DNA from: Corallococcus coralloides
GTDB taxonomy: Bacteria; Myxococcota; Myxococcia; Myxococcales; Myxococcaceae
Strand: one strand, 5' to 3'
DNA length: 64,000 bases
Assembly (NCBI RefSeq): GCF_044792175.1
Contig: NZ_CP172866.1
In this document: one piece after another, positions 8,042 to 22,363 of the stretch
Position numbering within the stretch: the first letter of the stretch is position 1
How the letters are laid out: every line of letters begins with the position of its first letter
Notes under the pieces: generated by a model
Database searches by the model: none
The model's input: only the letters and a program-made list of their open reading frames with translations
What the model was told of the DNA's origin: nothing
Program-made: the position numbers and the translations under genes

Positions 8042-9337
8042 TCAGTGGAGCGTCGGCTTGGGCGGGCGGCCCGACGGGGCCTCGCCGTCCAGCTCGTACT
8101 CGCCGCTGGGGGACTCCAGCTCCTCGTCATCCCCGTCCATACCGTCCGGGCCCTCTGGATGGCCCGCGCCCGACTCCAACGTCTCCGGCGCGCCCTCCAG
8201 GGCCTCCGGCTGGCTGGGCGCGGACGGATTGGGCGGGGCGGCGGGCGGGGTGGCGGCGGGCCACTCCGGCCAGGGGAGGGCGGGGGACAGCGGCTCGGCG
8301 CCGTCCACGGGGACGGGCCCCGCGGCGCGGGCGGCGGCGAGCAGGCGCAGCGCGGCGTCCTCGGCGGCGTCCTCCGCGGCCAGCTCCGTCATGCGGGCGG
8401 CCTTCTGGCGCATGCGGCGCGCGAAGGCGGCCACGCACAGGATGGAGGCCGTGAGCCACAGGAGCGCGGAGCTGGTGGTGAGCGGCAGCCAGCCGTAGCG
8501 GGCCGCGAGCCCCTCGCGCCAGTCCTGCTCCTCCAGCAGCAGCGACGTGCGGAAGGCCTTGCCGAAGGCCTGCTCGAAGGGCTCACCCGCGCGCACGCCG
8601 TCCACCAGCAGGCCCATGGCGTGCGCGCCGTGCTTGCCGGTGAGGAACGCCACGAAGGCGGCGCTCTGGGCGTAGGCGATTTCGACGTCCGCGGGCACGT
8701 CCGGCCACTCGTCGGACAGGTCCTCGAAGTGGAAGACGCGCTCCTGGGTCACCGCGCGGAAGAGGGCGCTGTAGTGGGCGACGGAGAAGCGCTCGTCGGT
8801 GAGGTTCTGCGCCACGCCCTCCTGGAACCAGCGCGGCCAGTCCTTCGCGAGCTGGCCCAGCGCCACGTGCGCCAGCTCGTGCCGCAGCGTGGTGGGGCCC
8901 TCCGAGTCGCTCAGGCTGAGCGCGTCCAGCAGGATGATCTGATGCCCGGGGTAGGCGAGCGCCACGGCCCAGCCCGGAGGCTTGCCACCGGGGAGCGCCA
9001 GCGCCTCGAACTCCTGGCGGCCCACGCCCAGGCGGATTTCAGTGGTGCCCGGCCAGTCGCGCCCCAGCATCGCGCCGAAGGCATCCCGCACGCCTTCAAT
9101 CTGCCCGGCCAGGGCCCGGGCCGCGCCCGCAGCCTTCGCGGTGTGGAGGATGACGAAGCGCTGCGTCTTCAGCTCCCCCGCGACGATGGCCGGGCGGGCG
9201 TGGGGCACGAGCGCGGCGTCCGTGACGACGGCCTCCGAGGCGTGGATGCCCCGGGGGCCTTCCTCCTGCGCGAACACGCCCGGCGAGGCCAGCAGCATCA
9301 TCAAGAAGGCGAACAGGCGGAGCATGCGTGGCCTCAC
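8042..9337 (-). CDS. Putative zinc metallopeptidase (HExxH...E) with signal peptide, C-terminal TM anchor and Pro-rich tail
   Basis: N-terminal signal peptide [29 protein letters not shown]..(15)..E gluzincin-like motif. A TM helix ([15 protein letters not shown]) is followed by a P/A/E-rich low-complexity tail. The start overlaps the YggU stop (ATGA). Confidence 0.55.
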
Positions 9338-9633
9338 GGTCCACCAGAGATAACAGCCTCGGCCGCCGCCGCATCAACCCCTTCCACCCTCAATCGCTTA
9401 CGGCGCGACGTGTCACCCGCCACGAGTGTCACCTGGCGACGCGGCACGCCCAGCGTTTTGGCGATGAATTCCACCAGGGCCGCATTCGCTTCACCATCCA
9501 CGGGCGGCGCGGCGAGCTGGATTTTAAGCTGGCCGTCATGCTCGCCCACCACCTTGGTGCGGGACGCGCGCGGCTGGACGAGCACCGTCAGCTCCACCCC
9601 GGCGGGTATGGCCTTGATCCAGGGGGCGGTCAT
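9334..9633 (-). CDS. yggU: YggU/DUF167 family protein
   Basis: 99 aa; the motif pattern ...[34 protein letters not shown] matches DUF167. It sits immediately downstream of divIVA, as in many genomes. Confidence 0.8.
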
Positions 9634-9643
9634 GCGCGTGACG

Positions 9644-10171
9644 CTAGTCGTTGGAGGTGGCCTTCTTCTGCGACAGGAACGCGACGTTGTCCTCCACGCG
9701 CGCGTAGTCGCGGTCCGCGAAGGTGGGCGCGGCGAACGTCTCCAGCAGCTTGCGGTGGGCCTCCACCACGGAGCGCACCTGCGACTCGAACTGGGTGCGC
9801 TGGCGCTTGAGCTCGTTGATGTCCTCCACCACCTGCACCAGCCGTTGGTGGGCGCCGTGGACGATCTTCTCCGCCTGGTGCTCCGCGTCCGCGATGATGA
9901 TCTCCGCTTCCTTCTTCGCGGCGTCCTTCAGGTCCTCGCTGATGCGCTGGGCGGTGACCATCGTCTCCTGGAGGGTGCGCTCGCGCTCCTGATGCTGCTC
10001 GAGCCGCGCCTGCGTGCGCTTCAGCTCCTCCTTGAGCGCGATGTTCTCCTTCACCACCTCCTCGAACTCGCCGGCGATCAGCTCCAGGTACGCGCCCACT
10101 TCGGGACGCGCGAAGCCGCGCATCACCGTCTCGAAGCGCTTCTGCCGGATGTCGAGGGGGGTGATCTTCAT
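9644..10171 (-). CDS. divIVA: DivIVA domain cell-division/polarity protein
   Basis: The N-terminus [25 protein letters not shown] is the DivIVA signature, followed by a coiled coil. Confidence 0.85.
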
Positions 10172-15859: not shown

Positions 15860-16621
15860 TCAGGTGCCCGTCGCGGCCCGGGGCTGCTCGGGCATGGGGC
15901 CGCGCTTCAGGTGCTTGTCGTAGTGGGCCTCCAGCGCGGTGAAGTAGCCGCGCTCGTCCCACATCTCCTGGAGGAGCCGGTCCGTGAGGGACCTCACCTC
16001 CGCGCGCTCGTCCTTCGGGTCGGGCACGCGGGCGCCGCCGCGCTTCGGATCCAGGAAGGCGCGGGTGGCCTCGGCCATCAGCACCCGGCTGCCGCGGAAG
16101 AGCCGGCGCAGGGCCTGGTTGATGGGGCGGGCGTCCATCTCCGAGCAGGCGGCGACGATGGCGGCCTGCACCCTGCGGGGCGCGTCCCCCTGGAGCGAGG
16201 CCGCGTCCAGGTCGCCTCGCTCCAGCGCGTGGTGCAGCAGGTAGCCGTGGTGCAGGCACACGCTCGTCAGGTCCACGCAGTCCTTCACCCAGAGGACGAA
16301 GAAGACCTTGCGGAACACCTTTCGCACGGGGAAGAGGGCCACGGCCTTGAGGTAGGACACCAGCCGTCCGCCCAGGCCGCGCGCTTCGTATGAGCCGGCG
16401 AGCACCGCCACGGCCTTGTCCGGGGCTTTGAGGCCCTTGTCCTTGAGCTGGTCGCGCACGGACTGCTCGCGCACCTGGCGCAGGGCGTAGTCGTCCAGGA
16501 ATGGCACGGGGATGAGCGGGGTGAGCCCGGCCGCCACGGCGTGGAAGGCCACGCGGGCGAGCGAGGGCGGCACGGCGTTCGGCGGACGGGCGTGGGTGGA
16601 GTCATCCATGGCGTGGTTCAT
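15860..16621 (-). CDS. Hypothetical protein
   Basis: ORF runs to 16846; the internal ATG at 16621 (MNHAMDD...) is preferred because upstream codons are atypical. No recognised domain. Confidence 0.4.
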
Positions 16622-17319: not shown

Positions 17320-17988
17320 CTATGGCAGGATGCGCTGCAGGAGCGCGCTGCCCGCGATGAGGTGCGCGCGGGTCTCGCCGCTCATCAGCGACGCCGCCAT
17401 GCTTACCCCCAGCGGCTGCTGCCGGAAGAACGCGGTCTCGCGCATCGCGAACTCCCAGATGTTGGAGGGCGTCGCGGGCCGGTTGAGCAGCTCGCGGTTC
17501 GCCTCGTAGAAGTCACCCACTTGGCCCGCCGCCGCCTCGCGTCCCGCGGCCTGTCCCGCGCGTGCCTGCTCCTGCATCCGCTGGAGCAGGTGGGGGGCCA
17601 TCTGGGACTGGGCCATGCCCTCCACGCCCAGGGCCGCCGCAGCCGGCGCAGCACCTGCCGCGTAGCCCACCGCGCCCATCGCCTGCATCGCGCCGGACAG
17701 CAGCGGGCGGATGGCCGCGCCCACCGAACCCGGGGGCGCCTGCCGCACCACCTCCAGCGCCCGCTCGCGCTGCCCCATCGGCGCCGGACCGCCCGCGCCC
17801 GTCAGGTTCACCGGGGCCGGAGCGCGGGGGCCCTCGAAGCCATCCTGTTGCAGCGCCACCTGCCGTGGCGTGCGTGCGGGCGCGGCCGGAGCCGTGGAGG
17901 CGGCTGGAGCCGCCGGACGGGCCTCCGTCACCGGGTTGGACACCGGGAGCGAGACACTCCGGTTGCCGACTGGACCTATGTTTCCCAT
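17320..17988 (-). CDS. Hypothetical Pro/Ala-rich protein
   Basis: The N-terminal half is low-complexity P/A-rich. The C-terminal ~70 aa look conserved (DFYEANRELLNRPATPSNIWEFAMRETAFFRQQPLG). Start uncertain (17988 or 18072). Confidence 0.35.
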   Translation of the reverse strand: MGNIGPVGNRSVSLPVSNPVTEARPAAPAASTAPAAPARTPRQVALQQDGFEGPRAPAPVNLTGAGGPAPMGQRERALEVVRQAPPGSVGAAIRPLLSGAMQAMGAVGYAAGAAPAAAALGVEGMAQSQMAPHLLQRMQEQARAGQAAGREAAAGQVGDFYEANRELLNRPATPSNIWEFAMRETAFFRQQPLGVSMAASLMSGETRAHLIAGSALLQRILP

Positions 17989-18046
17989 GTCTTCCACTTT
18001 AACACGGGTTCCTCCGGCCCTGCCGTGGCCGGGTAACCTCGGCGGC

Positions 18047-18520
18047 ATGTGCACCCCGATTGATTCCGTCATGCGCGTGGCCTACCGCGGCGCCTATCAC
18101 CTGGCGCTCGCGTGGTGGTTCGTGCGCCGCCCGCGCACGGAGGGCACGCTCGTGGGGGTGTGGCGGGGGCGTGAGGTGTTGCTGCTGCAGAACTCCTACA
18201 AGCAGGCCTTCTCGTTGCCGGGCGGCGGCCGGCACCGCGGCGAGTCTCCGGAAGAGACGGGCGCCCGGGAGCTGCGCGAGGAGGTGGGGCTGCACGTGCC
18301 GGCCTCGAGTCTGCGCGTCGTGTGCGAGCTGCGTCACACGGACGAGTTCAAGCGGGACCTGTGCCACTTCGTCGAGCTGGAGCTCGCCGCGGAGCCCCGG
18401 CTCGTGCTCGACCAGCGCGAGGTGGTGTGGGCCCGGTGGCTCGACGTGGAGACCGCGCTGCGCCTGCCGCTCATGCCCGTGGTGCGCGCCTACCTGGAGG
18501 ATGCCGCGCGGCGGAGGTGA
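18047..18520 (+). CDS. NUDIX hydrolase
   Basis: The Nudix box is GGGRHRGESPEETGARELREEVGL (GX5EX7REUXEEXGU). ORF begins at 17711; the ATG at 18047 is preferred. Confidence 0.7.
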   Translation: MCTPIDSVMRVAYRGAYHLALAWWFVRRPRTEGTLVGVWRGREVLLLQNSYKQAFSLPGGGRHRGESPEETGARELREEVGLHVPASSLRVVCELRHTDEFKRDLCHFVELELAAEPRLVLDQREVVWARWLDVETALRLPLMPVVRAYLEDAARRR

Positions 18521-18636
18521 TTCGTGCCCTCTCGCCCGTCCCCCTGGCGTGGAGGCGTCCTCCACCCTGTCTTGCACCCGCCACTTCGCCACCCCACCTT
18601 TCGGCGATTGGGATTGAACCGGGACGGAGGCGGACC

Positions 18637-19047
18637 GTGCTTCAGGAAGCCAGGACGACACCTTTGCAGAACGTGGGGCGCGGCGTGTTGGGCTCGTTCA
18701 TGGTCGGGGCCGGCGCGGGCCATCTCTCCTTCGCGCGCGGACCATTCCAGGCGCAGGTGCCGGACTGGGTGCCCATGGACAAGGACCTCGTCGTCCTGCT
18801 CTCCGGCGTGGTGGAGATCGGCCTTGGGCTGTCGCTGCTCTTCGACAAGCGCCACCGGGTTCCCCTGGGGCTGGGACTGGCGGCCTTCTTCGCGGCGGTC
18901 TTCCCCGGCAACCTGCATCAGTACGACAAGCGCCTCTCCGCGTTCGGTCTGGATACGGACGGCAAGCGCCTGGCGCGGCTGTTCTTCCAGCCCGTGCTGA
19001 TGGCCTGGGCGCTCTGGTCCACCGGTGCCCGGAAGGCGTTGCGGTAA
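18637..19047 (+). CDS. DoxX-like small membrane protein
   Basis: ~135 aa with 3-4 TM segments and an FPGNLHQY motif resembling the DoxX-like family. GTG at 18637, or ATG at 18700. Confidence 0.45.
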   Translation: MLQEARTTPLQNVGRGVLGSFMVGAGAGHLSFARGPFQAQVPDWVPMDKDLVVLLSGVVEIGLGLSLLFDKRHRVPLGLGLAAFFAAVFPGNLHQYDKRLSAFGLDTDGKRLARLFFQPVLMAWALWSTGARKALR

Positions 19048-19074: not shown

Positions 19075-19971
19075 CTACTTCGCTTCGCCCATGACTTCCA
19101 TGGTGTGCTTGAGCCGCTCCAGGCCCAGGCGCACCAGCGCGCCGCGCAGGTCGGGCTGGCCCAGGAAGGCCTTCCTGAACACCTCGCGCTCCAGCTTGAG
19201 CAGCGTGCAGGGCGTCACGGTGCGCACGGTGGCGGTGGCCAGCCGGCTGCGCAGCAGGGAGATCTCCCCGAACAGGGCGCCTTCCTCCAGCTTGGGATAG
19301 GCGGACTGGCGGCCGTCGCTGTGCGTGTGGAAGACCTCGCACTGGCCCCGGATGAGGACGTAGAGCGCGTCCCCCGGCTGGCCGCGGGTGAGCAGCGTCT
19401 CTCCGGCGGGGACGGTGCAGGGGACGAACGAGTCTCCCAGCTCATGCTGCACCTCCGGGGGCAGGGCGGCGATGAGCGGGTTGCTGCGCAGCGCGTCCGC
19501 GAGCAGGCGCTCCCGGGCGGCGACCTGCATCTGCTCGCCCTTCACGCCGTAGTCCTTGCCCAGCTCCCGGACGCCGGCCTGGGTGAGCTCCAGCAGCACG
19601 GCGTCCTCCACCGTCACGATGGTCGCGGTGCGCTGCGTGCCGGTGAGCAGCGCCAGCTCCCCGAAGAACTCGCCGGCCCCCAGGCGGCCGACCTCCGTAT
19701 TGCCGCCGGGTTCGCCGCCGCGAAGCACCGCGACGCGGCCCTCCAGCACCACGAACATGGAGTGTCCCGGGTCGCCCTCGCGCACCACCACCTGGCCCGC
19801 GGGCAGGTAGCGTGTGCAGACGGGCGGTGGCGCGGGGGCGCCTTCCGTCTCCGCCTGGGCGCCGGTCGCCACCGGGTGCGCCGAGGAGGCCGCGGGCGAC
19901 TGTCCGGCCGCCGGAGCCGGGGCGGACGGGTGGGCGGACAGCAGGGCCTGCAGGCGCGCGAACAGGGACAT
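19075..19971 (-). CDS. Tandem cyclic-nucleotide-binding (cNMP) domain protein, no output domain
   Basis: Two cNMP-binding domains, each with the phosphate-binding cassette: GAGEFFGELALLTGTQRTATI and EGALFGEISLLRSRLATATV. There is no HTH or enzymatic domain. Confidence 0.8.
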   Translation of the reverse strand: MSLFARLQALLSAHPSAPAPAAGQSPAASSAHPVATGAQAETEGAPAPPPVCTRYLPAGQVVVREGDPGHSMFVVLEGRVAVLRGGEPGGNTEVGRLGAGEFFGELALLTGTQRTATIVTVEDAVLLELTQAGVRELGKDYGVKGEQMQVAARERLLADALRSNPLIAALPPEVQHELGDSFVPCTVPAGETLLTRGQPGDALYVLIRGQCEVFHTHSDGRQSAYPKLEEGALFGEISLLRSRLATATVRTVTPCTLLKLEREVFRKAFLGQPDLRGALVRLGLERLKHTMEVMGEAK

Positions 19972-20184
19972 GGTGCGCGAATGCTACCGGCCCGTCCTCG
20001 CGGAAACTGTGAAGCGCTTCACAGGCGGCGTGGAGGCGGCCTGAAAGACAGCCAGGCGGCCAGGAGGAGCCATTGAACAGGGATTGACGGACGTTCGCCA
20101 CGTCTGTGTTCATCCCACCCGCCACGGTGGGGTGGACGCCGGGGATGGCGTGGCCGGACCGGTACGCCCTACAGTCCCGGGTCC

Positions 20185-21180
20185 ATGGGAGACACGCTGG
20201 ACGTCGTGGTGGACTTGGGGGACGTGGGAGAGACGGCCGCGGACGCCGTGCTGCTGAAGTACGCGCAGGGCTTCCACGGGGCGGACGGCGCGGTGGCGCG
20301 CAGGCTGGAGGCGGGGGGCGTGGCCATGGACGCCTTCGACCTGCTCCCGGGGGATCACCGCTTCATCGAGTCGCGCCGGACCCTGGGCGCCCCGTGGGTG
20401 CTCTTCCTGGGCACGGTGCGCCTGAGACAGTTCGGCTACCACGAGATCCGCCAGTTCGCCGTGCGCGCGCTCCAACTGCTGGAGCCACGGCATGAGGTGC
20501 GTCACCTCGCGTGCACGGTGCACGGTCCCAACTACGGGCTGGACGAGGACGAGGCCGTGCTGGCCCTGGTGGGTGGCTTCGTGGACGCGTTCCAGCGGGG
20601 CAGCGGCCCTCGCGACCTGGAGCGCATCACGGTGGTGGAGCTGAACCCCAAGCGCGTGGAGCGCCTGCGAAAGGCATTGGCGCTGGGGCTGGGGCTCACG
20701 CCGGGAGTGGAGCCGCTGATGGGGGCCACGGGCTTCCGTGTGCGGCGGACGTCGCGCTTCGTCCAGGCGCCGTCCATGGCTTCCGCGGGCGCGAACTCCC
20801 AAGAGAAGCCCCATGCGTTCGTGGCGATGCCCTTCGCGCAGGAGCTGGAGGACACCTACCACTACGGCATCCTGAACCCCGTGAAGGCGGCGGGGCTCCT
20901 GTGCGAGCGGGTGGACCAGGCCGTCTTCGACGGGCCCATCATCCAGCGCATCCGGGACCGCATCGACACCGCGAAGGTCGTCATCGCGGACCTGTCGCTG
21001 GCGAACCCCAATGTCTATCTGGAGGTGGGCTATGCCTGGGGACGCGGCAAGCCCACCCTGATGCTGGTGCGCGACGTGAAGGAATTGCGCTTCGACGTGT
21101 CCAGCTACCGGTGCCTCGTCTACCGGAACATCCGGCACCTGGAGGAACTGCTCACGCAGGAGCTGAAGCGCATCCCCTGA
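20185..21180 (+). CDS. Two-domain protein: N-terminal uncharacterised (macro-like?) domain + C-terminal nucleoside 2-deoxyribosyltransferase/SLOG/TIR-like domain
   Basis: C-terminal ~130 aa: AFVAMPF...(80)...ADLSLANPNVYLEVGYAWGRGKPTLMLV. This matches the NDT-fold signatures (N-terminal hydrophobic strand-GxF and ELGYA..GK catalytic-Glu motif). The N-terminal domain carries a Gly-rich AADAVLLKYAQGFHGADGAV segment. Confidence 0.6.
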   Translation: MGDTLDVVVDLGDVGETAADAVLLKYAQGFHGADGAVARRLEAGGVAMDAFDLLPGDHRFIESRRTLGAPWVLFLGTVRLRQFGYHEIRQFAVRALQLLEPRHEVRHLACTVHGPNYGLDEDEAVLALVGGFVDAFQRGSGPRDLERITVVELNPKRVERLRKALALGLGLTPGVEPLMGATGFRVRRTSRFVQAPSMASAGANSQEKPHAFVAMPFAQELEDTYHYGILNPVKAAGLLCERVDQAVFDGPIIQRIRDRIDTAKVVIADLSLANPNVYLEVGYAWGRGKPTLMLVRDVKELRFDVSSYRCLVYRNIRHLEELLTQELKRIP

Positions 21181-21193
21181 GCGTGTGGCGCGG

Positions 21194-22363
21194 TCAGTAG
21201 GGGGCGCAGGTGACGCCCTCGCAGTTGCCGGCGCCGTTGTTCCGCGCGACGTTGCCGCCCCCGTCGAAGGCGGTAGGCGCGTGGATGCCCCAGCCCGTGT
21301 TGCCCAGGGCCACGTTGCCCAGCACCGTGGGCGTGCTGGCCGGGAGGACGCGGAGGCCGTCACCGTTGTTCCGGAGGAACCGGTTGGCGCGGACGATGCC
21401 GGTCTGCGGGAGGCTGACGATGGGCGTGTCTTCCAGGGTCAGTCCGCCCGCATTGTCCCAGAAGGTGTTGCCCTGGATGTAGACCTGGAATGAGCCGGCT
21501 GTCAGCCCATTGTCATTGCCCACGATCCAGTTGTTGATCATGTCGAGCTGGACCACGTTCCAGATGGGCGTCTCCGTGGGAGCGAACGACGCGTTGTTCG
21601 CGATGAGCGTGTTCTCGAAGCGGAACCGTTCGCAGATATCCCGGCCCCCGATGGGCACGGTCGTGGAAGCGACGGCGTCATTCCGCGCGAAGACGCTCGA
21701 CCGGACGCGGGCACTGCCGGCGAAGCAGTAGATGCCGACTTCGTTCCCCGTGAAGGTCGAATCGAGGACGTCGGCCGCATGGGTATCCAGGTAGATGCCG
21801 AGGCGGTTGTTCTCGAAGTGGCTCGACCTCACGTCGAACGAACCGAGGGACGCGTCGATCTCGCTTCCGAGCCCGACGTCATTGCCGATGAACCGCGAAT
21901 TCGTGACGAGGAAGGAGGTGGTGGAGAAGAAGTTGTAGATGGCGGTGCCGTTGCCGGCGAACGTGAGCTTGTGCACCCGCAGGGAGTCGACTCCCTCGGT
22001 CTGGATGCCTCTTGCGAACCCGCGAATCGTGCCGTTGCGCACCATGCTGGTGCCGGTGACCACGATGCCCAGGGTGTCTTGCCGGACCGGACTCGAGCGG
22101 CGCACGGTGTGGCCACCCAGGTCGAGGACGATGCCATCCCCTTCGATGCGGAGTGCGGGCTCGTCCGTGCCCGGGCAGGAGAGGTCATGCGTGAGCTTCG
22201 TGTGCTGGGTGATGACGTCGCCACACTGGACGTCGCATTCGACCGGCTTCGCTTGCTGGAACCGGGCGTCGAGCGCCTCCCTGTCCGACGCGAGCGCCGC
22301 GGGTGCTCCCAGGAACAATGCGCCGATGGCCGCCGTGACAGAAAAGCCCTTTGCCTTATGCAT
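21194..22363 (-). CDS. Secreted right-handed parallel beta-helix repeat protein (pectin-lyase fold)
   Basis: Signal peptide MHKAKGFSVTAAIGALFLGAPAALA. Many ~22-aa repeats follow the pattern N.I.GN..G/A, consistent with PbH1 repeats. Confidence 0.7.
   Translation of the reverse strand: MHKAKGFSVTAAIGALFLGAPAALASDREALDARFQQAKPVECDVQCGDVITQHTKLTHDLSCPGTDEPALRIEGDGIVLDLGGHTVRRSSPVRQDTLGIVVTGTSMVRNGTIRGFARGIQTEGVDSLRVHKLTFAGNGTAIYNFFSTTSFLVTNSRFIGNDVGLGSEIDASLGSFDVRSSHFENNRLGIYLDTHAADVLDSTFTGNEVGIYCFAGSARVRSSVFARNDAVASTTVPIGGRDICERFRFENTLIANNASFAPTETPIWNVVQLDMINNWIVGNDNGLTAGSFQVYIQGNTFWDNAGGLTLEDTPIVSLPQTGIVRANRFLRNNGDGLRVLPASTPTVLGNVALGNTGWGIHAPTAFDGGGNVARNNGAGNCEGVTCAPY

Follow-up and report, generated by a model that had tools for sequence, protein, structure and literature searches.

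TIR and DrHyd domains act on NAD+ to set free ADP-ribose derivatives, which are then bound or processed by macro domains (PMC9503650). In type II Thoeris, a TIR protein (ThsB) is combined with a transmembrane-macro protein (ThsA) whose macro domain senses His-ADPR (10.64898/2025.12.03.692087), and some type II ThsB proteins have active sites like those of nucleoside 2-deoxyribosyltransferases (NDT) (PMC11204291). DrHyd and Macro are also among the effectors that EADs, acting as adaptors, tether to NTPase-centred conflict systems of multicellular bacteria, and these EAD-linked systems are enriched in Myxobacteria, Cyanobacteria, Actinobacteria and Chloroflexi (PMC7159879). Here we describe a gene, gene A, and its divergent neighbor, gene B, in a 64,000-nucleotide stretch of Corallococcus coralloides DNA (the window), which lies closest to Corallococcus exercitus and whose gene A is 96% identical to that of locus L001. 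An earlier interpretation made by a model from the letters of the window (the sequence-only reading) had proposed that the two genes may form a functional signaling or defense module linked to cyclic nucleotides (cNMP). We consider it probable, though well short of certain, that gene A instead acts autonomously as a single gene, belonging to a large uncharacterised family, and is not half of a two-gene module, its C-terminal domain being an N-glycosidase and its macro domain binding an ADP-ribosyl group. The two genes are:

20185..21180, plus strand: gene A, an open reading frame of 331 amino acids encoding a two-domain protein, macro fold plus NDT/DrHyd-like domain, orthologue of Myxococcus xanthus MXAN_3123.
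19075..19971, minus strand: gene B, an open reading frame of 298 amino acids with an Ala/Pro-rich N-terminus and two cNMP-binding domains.

Both frames appear in the open reading frame list where the sequence-only reading had placed them, divergent and separated by a 213-bp spacer (19972..20184). The window has a G+C content of ~70%, and G+C at third codon positions reaches 0.93-0.95 in both genes, supporting both reading frames.

Compared with the described systems, gene A belongs to none of Pycsar, CBASS, type II Thoeris or the EAD-linked systems. It resembles PycTIR, the proteins behind the PADLOC 'Effector TIR' profiles PDLC00730-733 and TIR-SAVED in joining a sensor to a TIR/DrHyd effector; however, a macro fold replaces the cNMP, SAVED or STING sensor of the Pycsar and CBASS TIR effectors, TIR-SAVED and TIR-STING. 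Unlike the Pycsar and CBASS TIR effectors, gene A also has no adjacent cyclase and no Pfam TIR match, and it is a core, apparently vertically inherited gene outside any defense island. The likeness to type II Thoeris lies in a TIR-class enzyme and a macro domain arranged around an ADP-ribose-derived ligand, and a true TIR domain also occurs in some of the relatives, but gene A is one soluble polypeptide with no transmembrane effector or two-gene operon, and its macro domain is unseen by Pfam. Although EAD1, EAD7 or EAD11 occurs in relatives of gene A, a Pfam scan found no EAD in the window protein. The surroundings agree with this placement: no PycC lies beside a cNMP effector and no A-B operon is conserved across genomes; the neighborhood holds no CD-NTase with a SAVED- or STING-type effector, PADLOC matching neither CD-NTase nor SAVED there; and no thsB stands next to a thsA, nor does gene A have a conserved neighbor. 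Pfam and PADLOC profiles detected neither a TIR gene adjoining gene A nor a STAND, vWA or MoxR component beside it, and PADLOC found no complete defense system in this region of the window.

The catalytic part of our proposal concerns the C-terminal domain, whose features are:

20806..21177, plus strand: NDT/MilB/TIR-class (DrHyd) Rossmannoid domain, residues 208-331.
20815..20835, plus strand: strand-1 motif AFVAMPF, residues 211-217, with F212, A214, M215, P216 and F217 invariant.
21004..21039, plus strand: NPNVYLEVGYAW, residues 274-285, with the predicted catalytic Glu280 (codon 21022..21024).

Conservation was assessed on an alignment of 36 sequences spanning the phyla in which the family was found. 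All 12 residues of the NPNVYLEVGYAW block (N274-W285) are conserved in at least 95% of these sequences, and other invariant residues of the domain are F212, A214-M215-P216-F217, D223, C240-E241-R242 and D244. The motifs to which the sequence-only reading had drawn attention, AFVAMPF, NVYLEVGYAWGRGKPTLMLV (residues 276-295) and AADAVLL..GFHGADGAV (residues 18-37), are all present in gene A. Its assignment of the C-terminal domain to the NDT/SLOG/TIR class with a catalytic Glu was borne out by an alignment to MilB, by the fold match and by the PADLOC profile PDLC00733, an 'Effector TIR' of CBASS/Pycsar type (E 2.1e-13). This profile fits the domain better than Pfam NDT does, whereas the TIR profiles themselves (Pfam TIR, TIR_2, ThsB_TIR and CAP12-PCTIR_TIR) did not match gene A. 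MilB, a CMP hydrolase, is the best solved match by sequence, at a marginal E of 0.12 with a single sequence, and also the closest solved fold. Glu280 aligns with the catalytic Glu of MilB, a column in which MilB chain 4ohb has Ala, and the domain has a Rossmannoid fold in which the catalytic Glu starts the helix after the central strand.

In NDT and DNPH1, a Tyr partner of the catalytic Glu restricts the enzyme to 2'-deoxy substrates, giving a Phe/Tyr rule for ribo versus deoxy (PMC11204291). Gene A has Phe212 rather than Tyr at the predicted partner position, an equivalence taken from motif alignment and not from structural superposition, and a ribo substrate, as in MilB and the TIR NADases, is therefore predicted. 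The C-terminal domain would thus cleave the N-glycosidic bond of a ribo-nucleotide via the invariant Glu280, with NAD+ or an ADP-ribose-containing compound as our best guess at the substrate. From MilB and BcmB, which are CMP (hydroxymethyl-CMP) N-glycosidases, and from DNPH1 and NDT, gene A further differs in matching below the Pfam gathering threshold, in having no GSIRGG-type phosphate loop and in its extra N-terminal macro-fold domain.

That the best solved-structure match is a CMP hydrolase also speaks for a serious rival, to which we give a real but minor chance: gene A may be a housekeeping N-glycosidase of nucleotide salvage or sanitising that takes a mononucleotide as substrate, comparable to MilB, DNPH1 or LOG, with the macro fold serving as a regulatory or oligomerisation nucleotide-binding domain unrelated to ADP-ribose. 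The closer fit of the C-terminal domain to the CBASS/Pycsar effector profile than to Pfam NDT argues against this, as does the finding that gene A never lies within a nucleotide-metabolism operon in the neighborhoods scanned.

The N-terminal half of the protein supplies the ligand-binding part of the proposal:

20185..20754, plus strand: macro-fold domain, residues 1-190, with K25, A27, H113-G114, G118-L119-D120-E121 and E123 invariant.
20521..20553, plus strand: loop H113-G-x3-G-L-D-E-x-E123 of the macro-fold domain, invariant in the 36 sequences.
20755..20805, plus strand: disordered linker of variable length, residues 191-207, pLDDT <50.

An AlphaFold2 model of gene A, built from a 28-sequence alignment, has a mean pLDDT of 80.8, with the N-terminal domain mostly >90, and contains no transmembrane segment; the linker is the sole indel-rich region of the family alignment. 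As modeled, the N-terminal domain is a three-layer alpha/beta/alpha macro fold, and Foldseek places it at TM-scores of 0.65-0.75 to YmdB, TTHA0132, macroH2A1.1 and Af1521, so that the macro-like domain suspected by the sequence-only reading found support from predicted structure, with no sequence profile recognizing it. ADP-ribose binding is the function classically associated with the macro fold. Pfam Macro matched none of the 28 family members scanned even at E<=5, and phmmer and hmmsearch searches of the PDB returned no macro chain; since no sequence profile detects the domain, this appears to be a very diverged macro-fold family.

Judged by eye from motif order and not from a computed superposition, the HG-x3-GLDE loop would occupy the place of the second phosphate-binding loop of macro domains. 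The NAAN Asn and GGG loop of the MacroD type show no obvious conservation by eye, as the Asn has given way to Q28, kept in 85-95% of the sequences, and the first Gly-rich loop is degenerate; this absence of an evident MacroD-type catalytic motif favors the housekeeping alternative. The invariant residues indicate strong purifying selection on both domains, as expected for an enzyme with a fixed ligand. Under the reading that we favor, the macro-fold domain would bind an ADP-ribosyl group, whether this is the substrate, the product or an activating ligand.

Gene A belongs to a widespread and uncharacterised family, of which the window protein is the minimal form, macro-fold plus DrHyd. A 90%-clustered database contains 1780 homologues of gene A, and a scan of species-representative genomes gave 360 loci. 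Full-length homologues occur across Myxococcota at 57-95% identity (68% for M. xanthus MXAN_3123), and homologues aligning over the whole length at 41-48% identity were found in Acidobacteriota, Binatia, Chloroflexota, Nostocales, Gemmatimonadota, Gallionellales and one Methanosarcina metagenome-assembled genome (MAG). When the C-terminal domain alone was searched with HMMER against 1.84 billion representatives, 12407 matches were obtained at E<=1e-3 and 197 at E<=1e-30, and the macro-like N-terminal domain is present in 124 of the 150 best representatives. In Myxococcus and Pyxidicoccus, gene A is 68-71% identical and its syntenic flanks 62-80%; because gene A diverges at the rate of these flanks, vertical descent is indicated, and gene A is, on this comparison, a vertically inherited core gene in Myxococcaceae. 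Core-genome status, vertical inheritance and a conserved position in this family are again what the housekeeping alternative would expect. The phage and plasmid collections contain no full-length copy of gene A. Stand-alone small open reading frames resembling only its C-terminal domain, at 25-39% identity, were seen in Staphylococcus phage SA13 (9316-9738) and in 15 further records of Staphylococcus phages, the staphylococcal phages being temperate, and on many plasmids, those of Agrobacterium, Bacillus and Tritonibacter among them.

A number of relatives of gene A carry further domains:

P0269, P0285, P0286, P0347, P0323, P0325, P0266, P0361, P0355, P0364, P0305, P0290 and P0289: relatives with added TIR_2/CAP12-PCTIR_TIR, DUF4062, EAD7, EAD1, EAD11, CHAT, HD or astacin-like domains.

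TIR_2 or CAP12-PCTIR_TIR is added in at least 11 of the 150 best representatives. DUF4062, reported as an NADase family (10.64898/2026.05.01.722283), occurs with the macro-like domain in P0325 and without it in P0323. EAD1 (P0355), EAD7 (P0266 and P0361) and EAD11 (P0364) each precede the macro+NDT-like module, all on contigs of 1.4-3.9 kb that are too short for partner genes. Further fusions bring in CHAT, a C-terminal HD domain or an astacin-like peptidase; P0241-P0244 have tandem NDT-like C-terminal domains; and two variants without the macro-like domain place TPR repeats (P0350) or tandem TIR (P0374) before the C-terminal domain alone. Because relatives add TIR, DUF4062, EAD, CHAT and HD domains, we place the macro+NDT module among NAD+/ADP-ribose-centred effector enzymes. 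The claim of the sequence-only reading that such domains recur as effectors of conflict systems is upheld by the same relatives, and the recurrence of TIR, DUF4062, EAD1/7/11 and CHAT fusions, typical of NAD+ and conflict effectors and not of salvage enzymes, counts against a housekeeping N-glycosidase.

These architectures could also be taken to mean that gene A has no catalytic activity and serves as a sensor or adaptor, its two domains only binding nucleotide-derived ligands and its output passing through unlinked partners, given that the appended enzymatic domains (TIR, CHAT, HD, peptidase) vary around a constant core and that in Thoeris and systems related to it macro and TIR/SLOG-class domains act solely as sensors (PMC9503650; 10.64898/2025.12.03.692087). 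We find this improbable, as the catalytic Glu and the 12 residues around it are invariant across phyla in the manner of an active site, and EAD-tagged versions without any other enzymatic domain imply, by the EAD logic of PMC7159879, that the module is itself the effector.

Extending the favored proposal, gene A could be a self-contained, ligand-gated, NAD+-destroying switch in which the macro domain senses an ADP-ribose-derived signal, for instance from TIR enzymes, and unleashes the C-terminal N-glycosidase; such a switch would resemble Thoeris or Pycsar effectors condensed into one protein, and would have become established in the core genome of multicellular Myxococcota, where it could act in immunity or developmental cell death. 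We hold this extension to be unlikely. An immune role for the window copy is opposed by its single-gene locus with no EAD or partner, by divergence in step with its neighbors and by the lack of a full-length homologue among the phages and plasmids searched.

We compared the window genes with 80 fetched loci by tblastn. Gene B adjoins gene A in Corallococcus only (ten loci), and in five of these (L006, L008, L009, L010 and L044) it lies ~0.9 kb away. In L008 (C. llansteffanensis), the gap is filled by an alpha/beta-hydrolase-like open reading frame (8958-9977, plus strand; HGLGASKE motif, judged by eye), which runs in the direction of gene A and stops 24 bp short of it. Synteny of the flanks (Lnb-like, the hypothetical at 15860, D-Ser-dehydratase-like and prolyl oligopeptidase) holds in Myxococcus and Pyxidicoccus, where gene B is absent and a styrene-monooxygenase-like flavoprotein gene lies upstream of gene A instead; in other genera the upstream gene encodes a subtilase, a PilP-like protein or an unannotated open reading frame. 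Pyxidicoccus carries gene B homologues of equal length and ~66% identity in another neighborhood, with a CBS-domain gene, an HxlR regulator and a nitronate monooxygenase. No cNMP gene adjoins gene A in the ~68 other loci; eight cNMP matches of 30-34% identity, which we take as chance, lie 4-9 kb from gene A with genes between, six in one Archangium/Vitiosangium clade and two in unrelated MAGs (L061 and L069). The sequence-only reading had itself named synteny in related genomes as the test of the pairing, and the absence of gene B from the syntenic position in Myxococcus and Pyxidicoccus, together with the lack of any shared neighbor in the 80 loci, tells against a functional cNMP-linked module. 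On these comparisons, gene B is apparently a chance, genus-specific neighbor of gene A and not its partner.

What remains in favor of such a module is a resemblance to a split PycTIR, in which gene B would sense a cyclic nucleotide and allosterically activate gene A for defense or signaling. The cNMP domains of gene B match the sensor part of PycTIR/CBASS TIR-effector profiles (PDLC00731, 2.4e-18; PDLC02371, 5.8e-17), the C-terminal domain of gene A matches another 'Effector TIR' profile, PDLC00733, and the two genes are close and divergent in the 10 Corallococcus loci. These PADLOC matches, however, are at the level of domains and did not add up to a complete system. As that reading had already noted, there is no cyclase: Pfam and PADLOC profiles found none among the 10 neighboring proteins, and a PycC match on gene B spans only the cNMP-binding region (positions 39-121 of 374). 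Adjacency limited to one genus and interrupted in five of its loci, the location of the closest gene B homologues at another locus in Pyxidicoccus, the absence of an adjoining cNMP gene from the remaining gene A loci and a CRP-like site that tracks gene B alone (below) all count against a split PycTIR, and we regard it as very improbable.

Two broader searches of the neighborhoods were also made. Clustering of open reading frames <=6 kb from gene A in the 80 loci, as a search for a conserved partner gene, returned antisense shadow frames and genus-level synteny only, and this candidate was rejected. A defense-island context was likewise rejected: the 117 neighbors at 17 non-myxobacterial loci are mostly housekeeping genes with no enrichment of any family or of defense genes (PADLOC and Pfam), and this setting is one that the housekeeping alternative would predict. 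Separately, a conserved 136-aa protein, CBS pair-like by eye, is encoded ~100-160 bp downstream of the gene A homologue on the same strand in one Myxococcaceae/Archangiaceae MAG clade (L037, L040, L043, L046, L049 and L062). The Pyxidicoccus gene B homologue likewise precedes a CBS-domain gene (L081 and L082; Pfam CBS).

Gene B and its upstream region have these features:

~19555..19812 and 19108..19446, minus strand: the two cNMP-binding domains of gene B (Pfam cNMP_binding).
20008..20023, no strand assigned: CRP/FNR-type palindrome TGTGA-N6-TCACA, TGTGAAGCGCTTCACA, centered ~44 bp upstream of the gene B start codon.

Pfam cNMP_binding matches gene B in two stretches (E 1.8e-46; 156.4 bits against a cutoff of 27.5) with no other domain, confirming the description of gene B as an effector-less tandem cNMP-binding protein, and homologues in Corallococcus are 84-94% identical. 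The first cassette, FGELAL..RTAT, is intact, with the canonical Arg present (FGELALLTGTQRTAT). The second (19108-19446), FGEISLL..LATAT, as read from its sequence is without the canonical phosphate-binding Arg (FGEISLLRSRLATAT), and because this residue is missing the second domain may not bind cyclic nucleotide in the usual way. The palindrome is the single TGTGA-N6-TCACA match in the 64 kb, where 0.02 would be expected, and it recurs ~37 bp upstream of the gene B start in 10 of 10 Corallococcus loci. Between conserved half-sites, the six central bases differ among loci (AGCGCT, AGCGGT, AGTGCT, AATGCT, AATGGT), which points to a protein-binding site and not an RNA hairpin. It stays with gene B where gene A lies 0.9 kb off, and it is absent upstream of gene A in all 18 non-Corallococcus loci checked. 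Since the palindrome tracks gene B and not gene A, gene B seems to belong to a cNMP/CRP-type regulon independently of gene A, and the palindrome is likely its operator, under a CRP-family regulator. M. xanthus CbpB is described, in the account of Kimura et al. 2005 cited in PMC10313047, as having two cAMP-binding domains and no output domain. Gene B, by this description and not by sequence, is likewise an effector-less tandem cNMP-binding protein of a myxobacterium. Gene B is thus an independent protein of a kind already known in Myxococcus, and the neighbor of gene A only in Corallococcus.

The immediate surroundings of the two genes vary between strains. A hypothetical gene and the NUDIX and DoxX-like genes (17320-19047) were found by tblastn of the 80 loci in the window and L011 alone, and the beta-helix/NosD-like gene at 21194-22363, 3' of gene A and with a G+C of 0.656, in the window and L004 alone (71% identity). 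Because these genes are limited to the window plus one locus each, the A/B pair appears to be flanked by strain-variable insertions. The NUDIX gene, which the sequence-only reading had noted 1.5 kb upstream, was rejected as a component of the module on the same grounds.

Several observations weigh against our proposal. For the C-terminal domain, Pfam Nuc_deoxyrib_tr (PF05014) scores 24.6 bits on gene A, under its gathering cutoff of 28.8, and covers profile positions 52-103 of 117; its matches are sub-threshold in all 28 family members scanned. Searching the PDB with a broader family profile improved the MilB match only to E 0.037, still marginal, and, MilB being a CMP hydrolase, a mononucleotide substrate is as compatible with the C-terminal domain taken by itself as NAD+. 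The macro assignment is drawn solely from a predicted structure. Core, vertically inherited status is atypical for immune effectors, and our literature search found no paper mentioning MXAN_3123. Ten Corallococcus genomes keep genes A and B near each other, and a regulatory link specific to this lineage may yet connect them.

Collectively, these data remove a tempting 'split Pycsar-like' module, for which domain-level PADLOC matches and adjacency in one genus are insufficient. In its place stands a family that is large, strongly conserved and experimentally untouched, and that includes MXAN_3123 of the genetically tractable M. xanthus. Current sequence profiles miss its macro domain, and its variant architectures tie the family to NAD+/ADP-ribose-centred immunity. 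Should gene A prove to be an NADase or an ADP-ribosyl N-glycosidase, the TIR/DrHyd effectors would gain a member gated by a macro domain, and one would have to ask why social bacteria keep an enzyme of the conflict type in their core genome.

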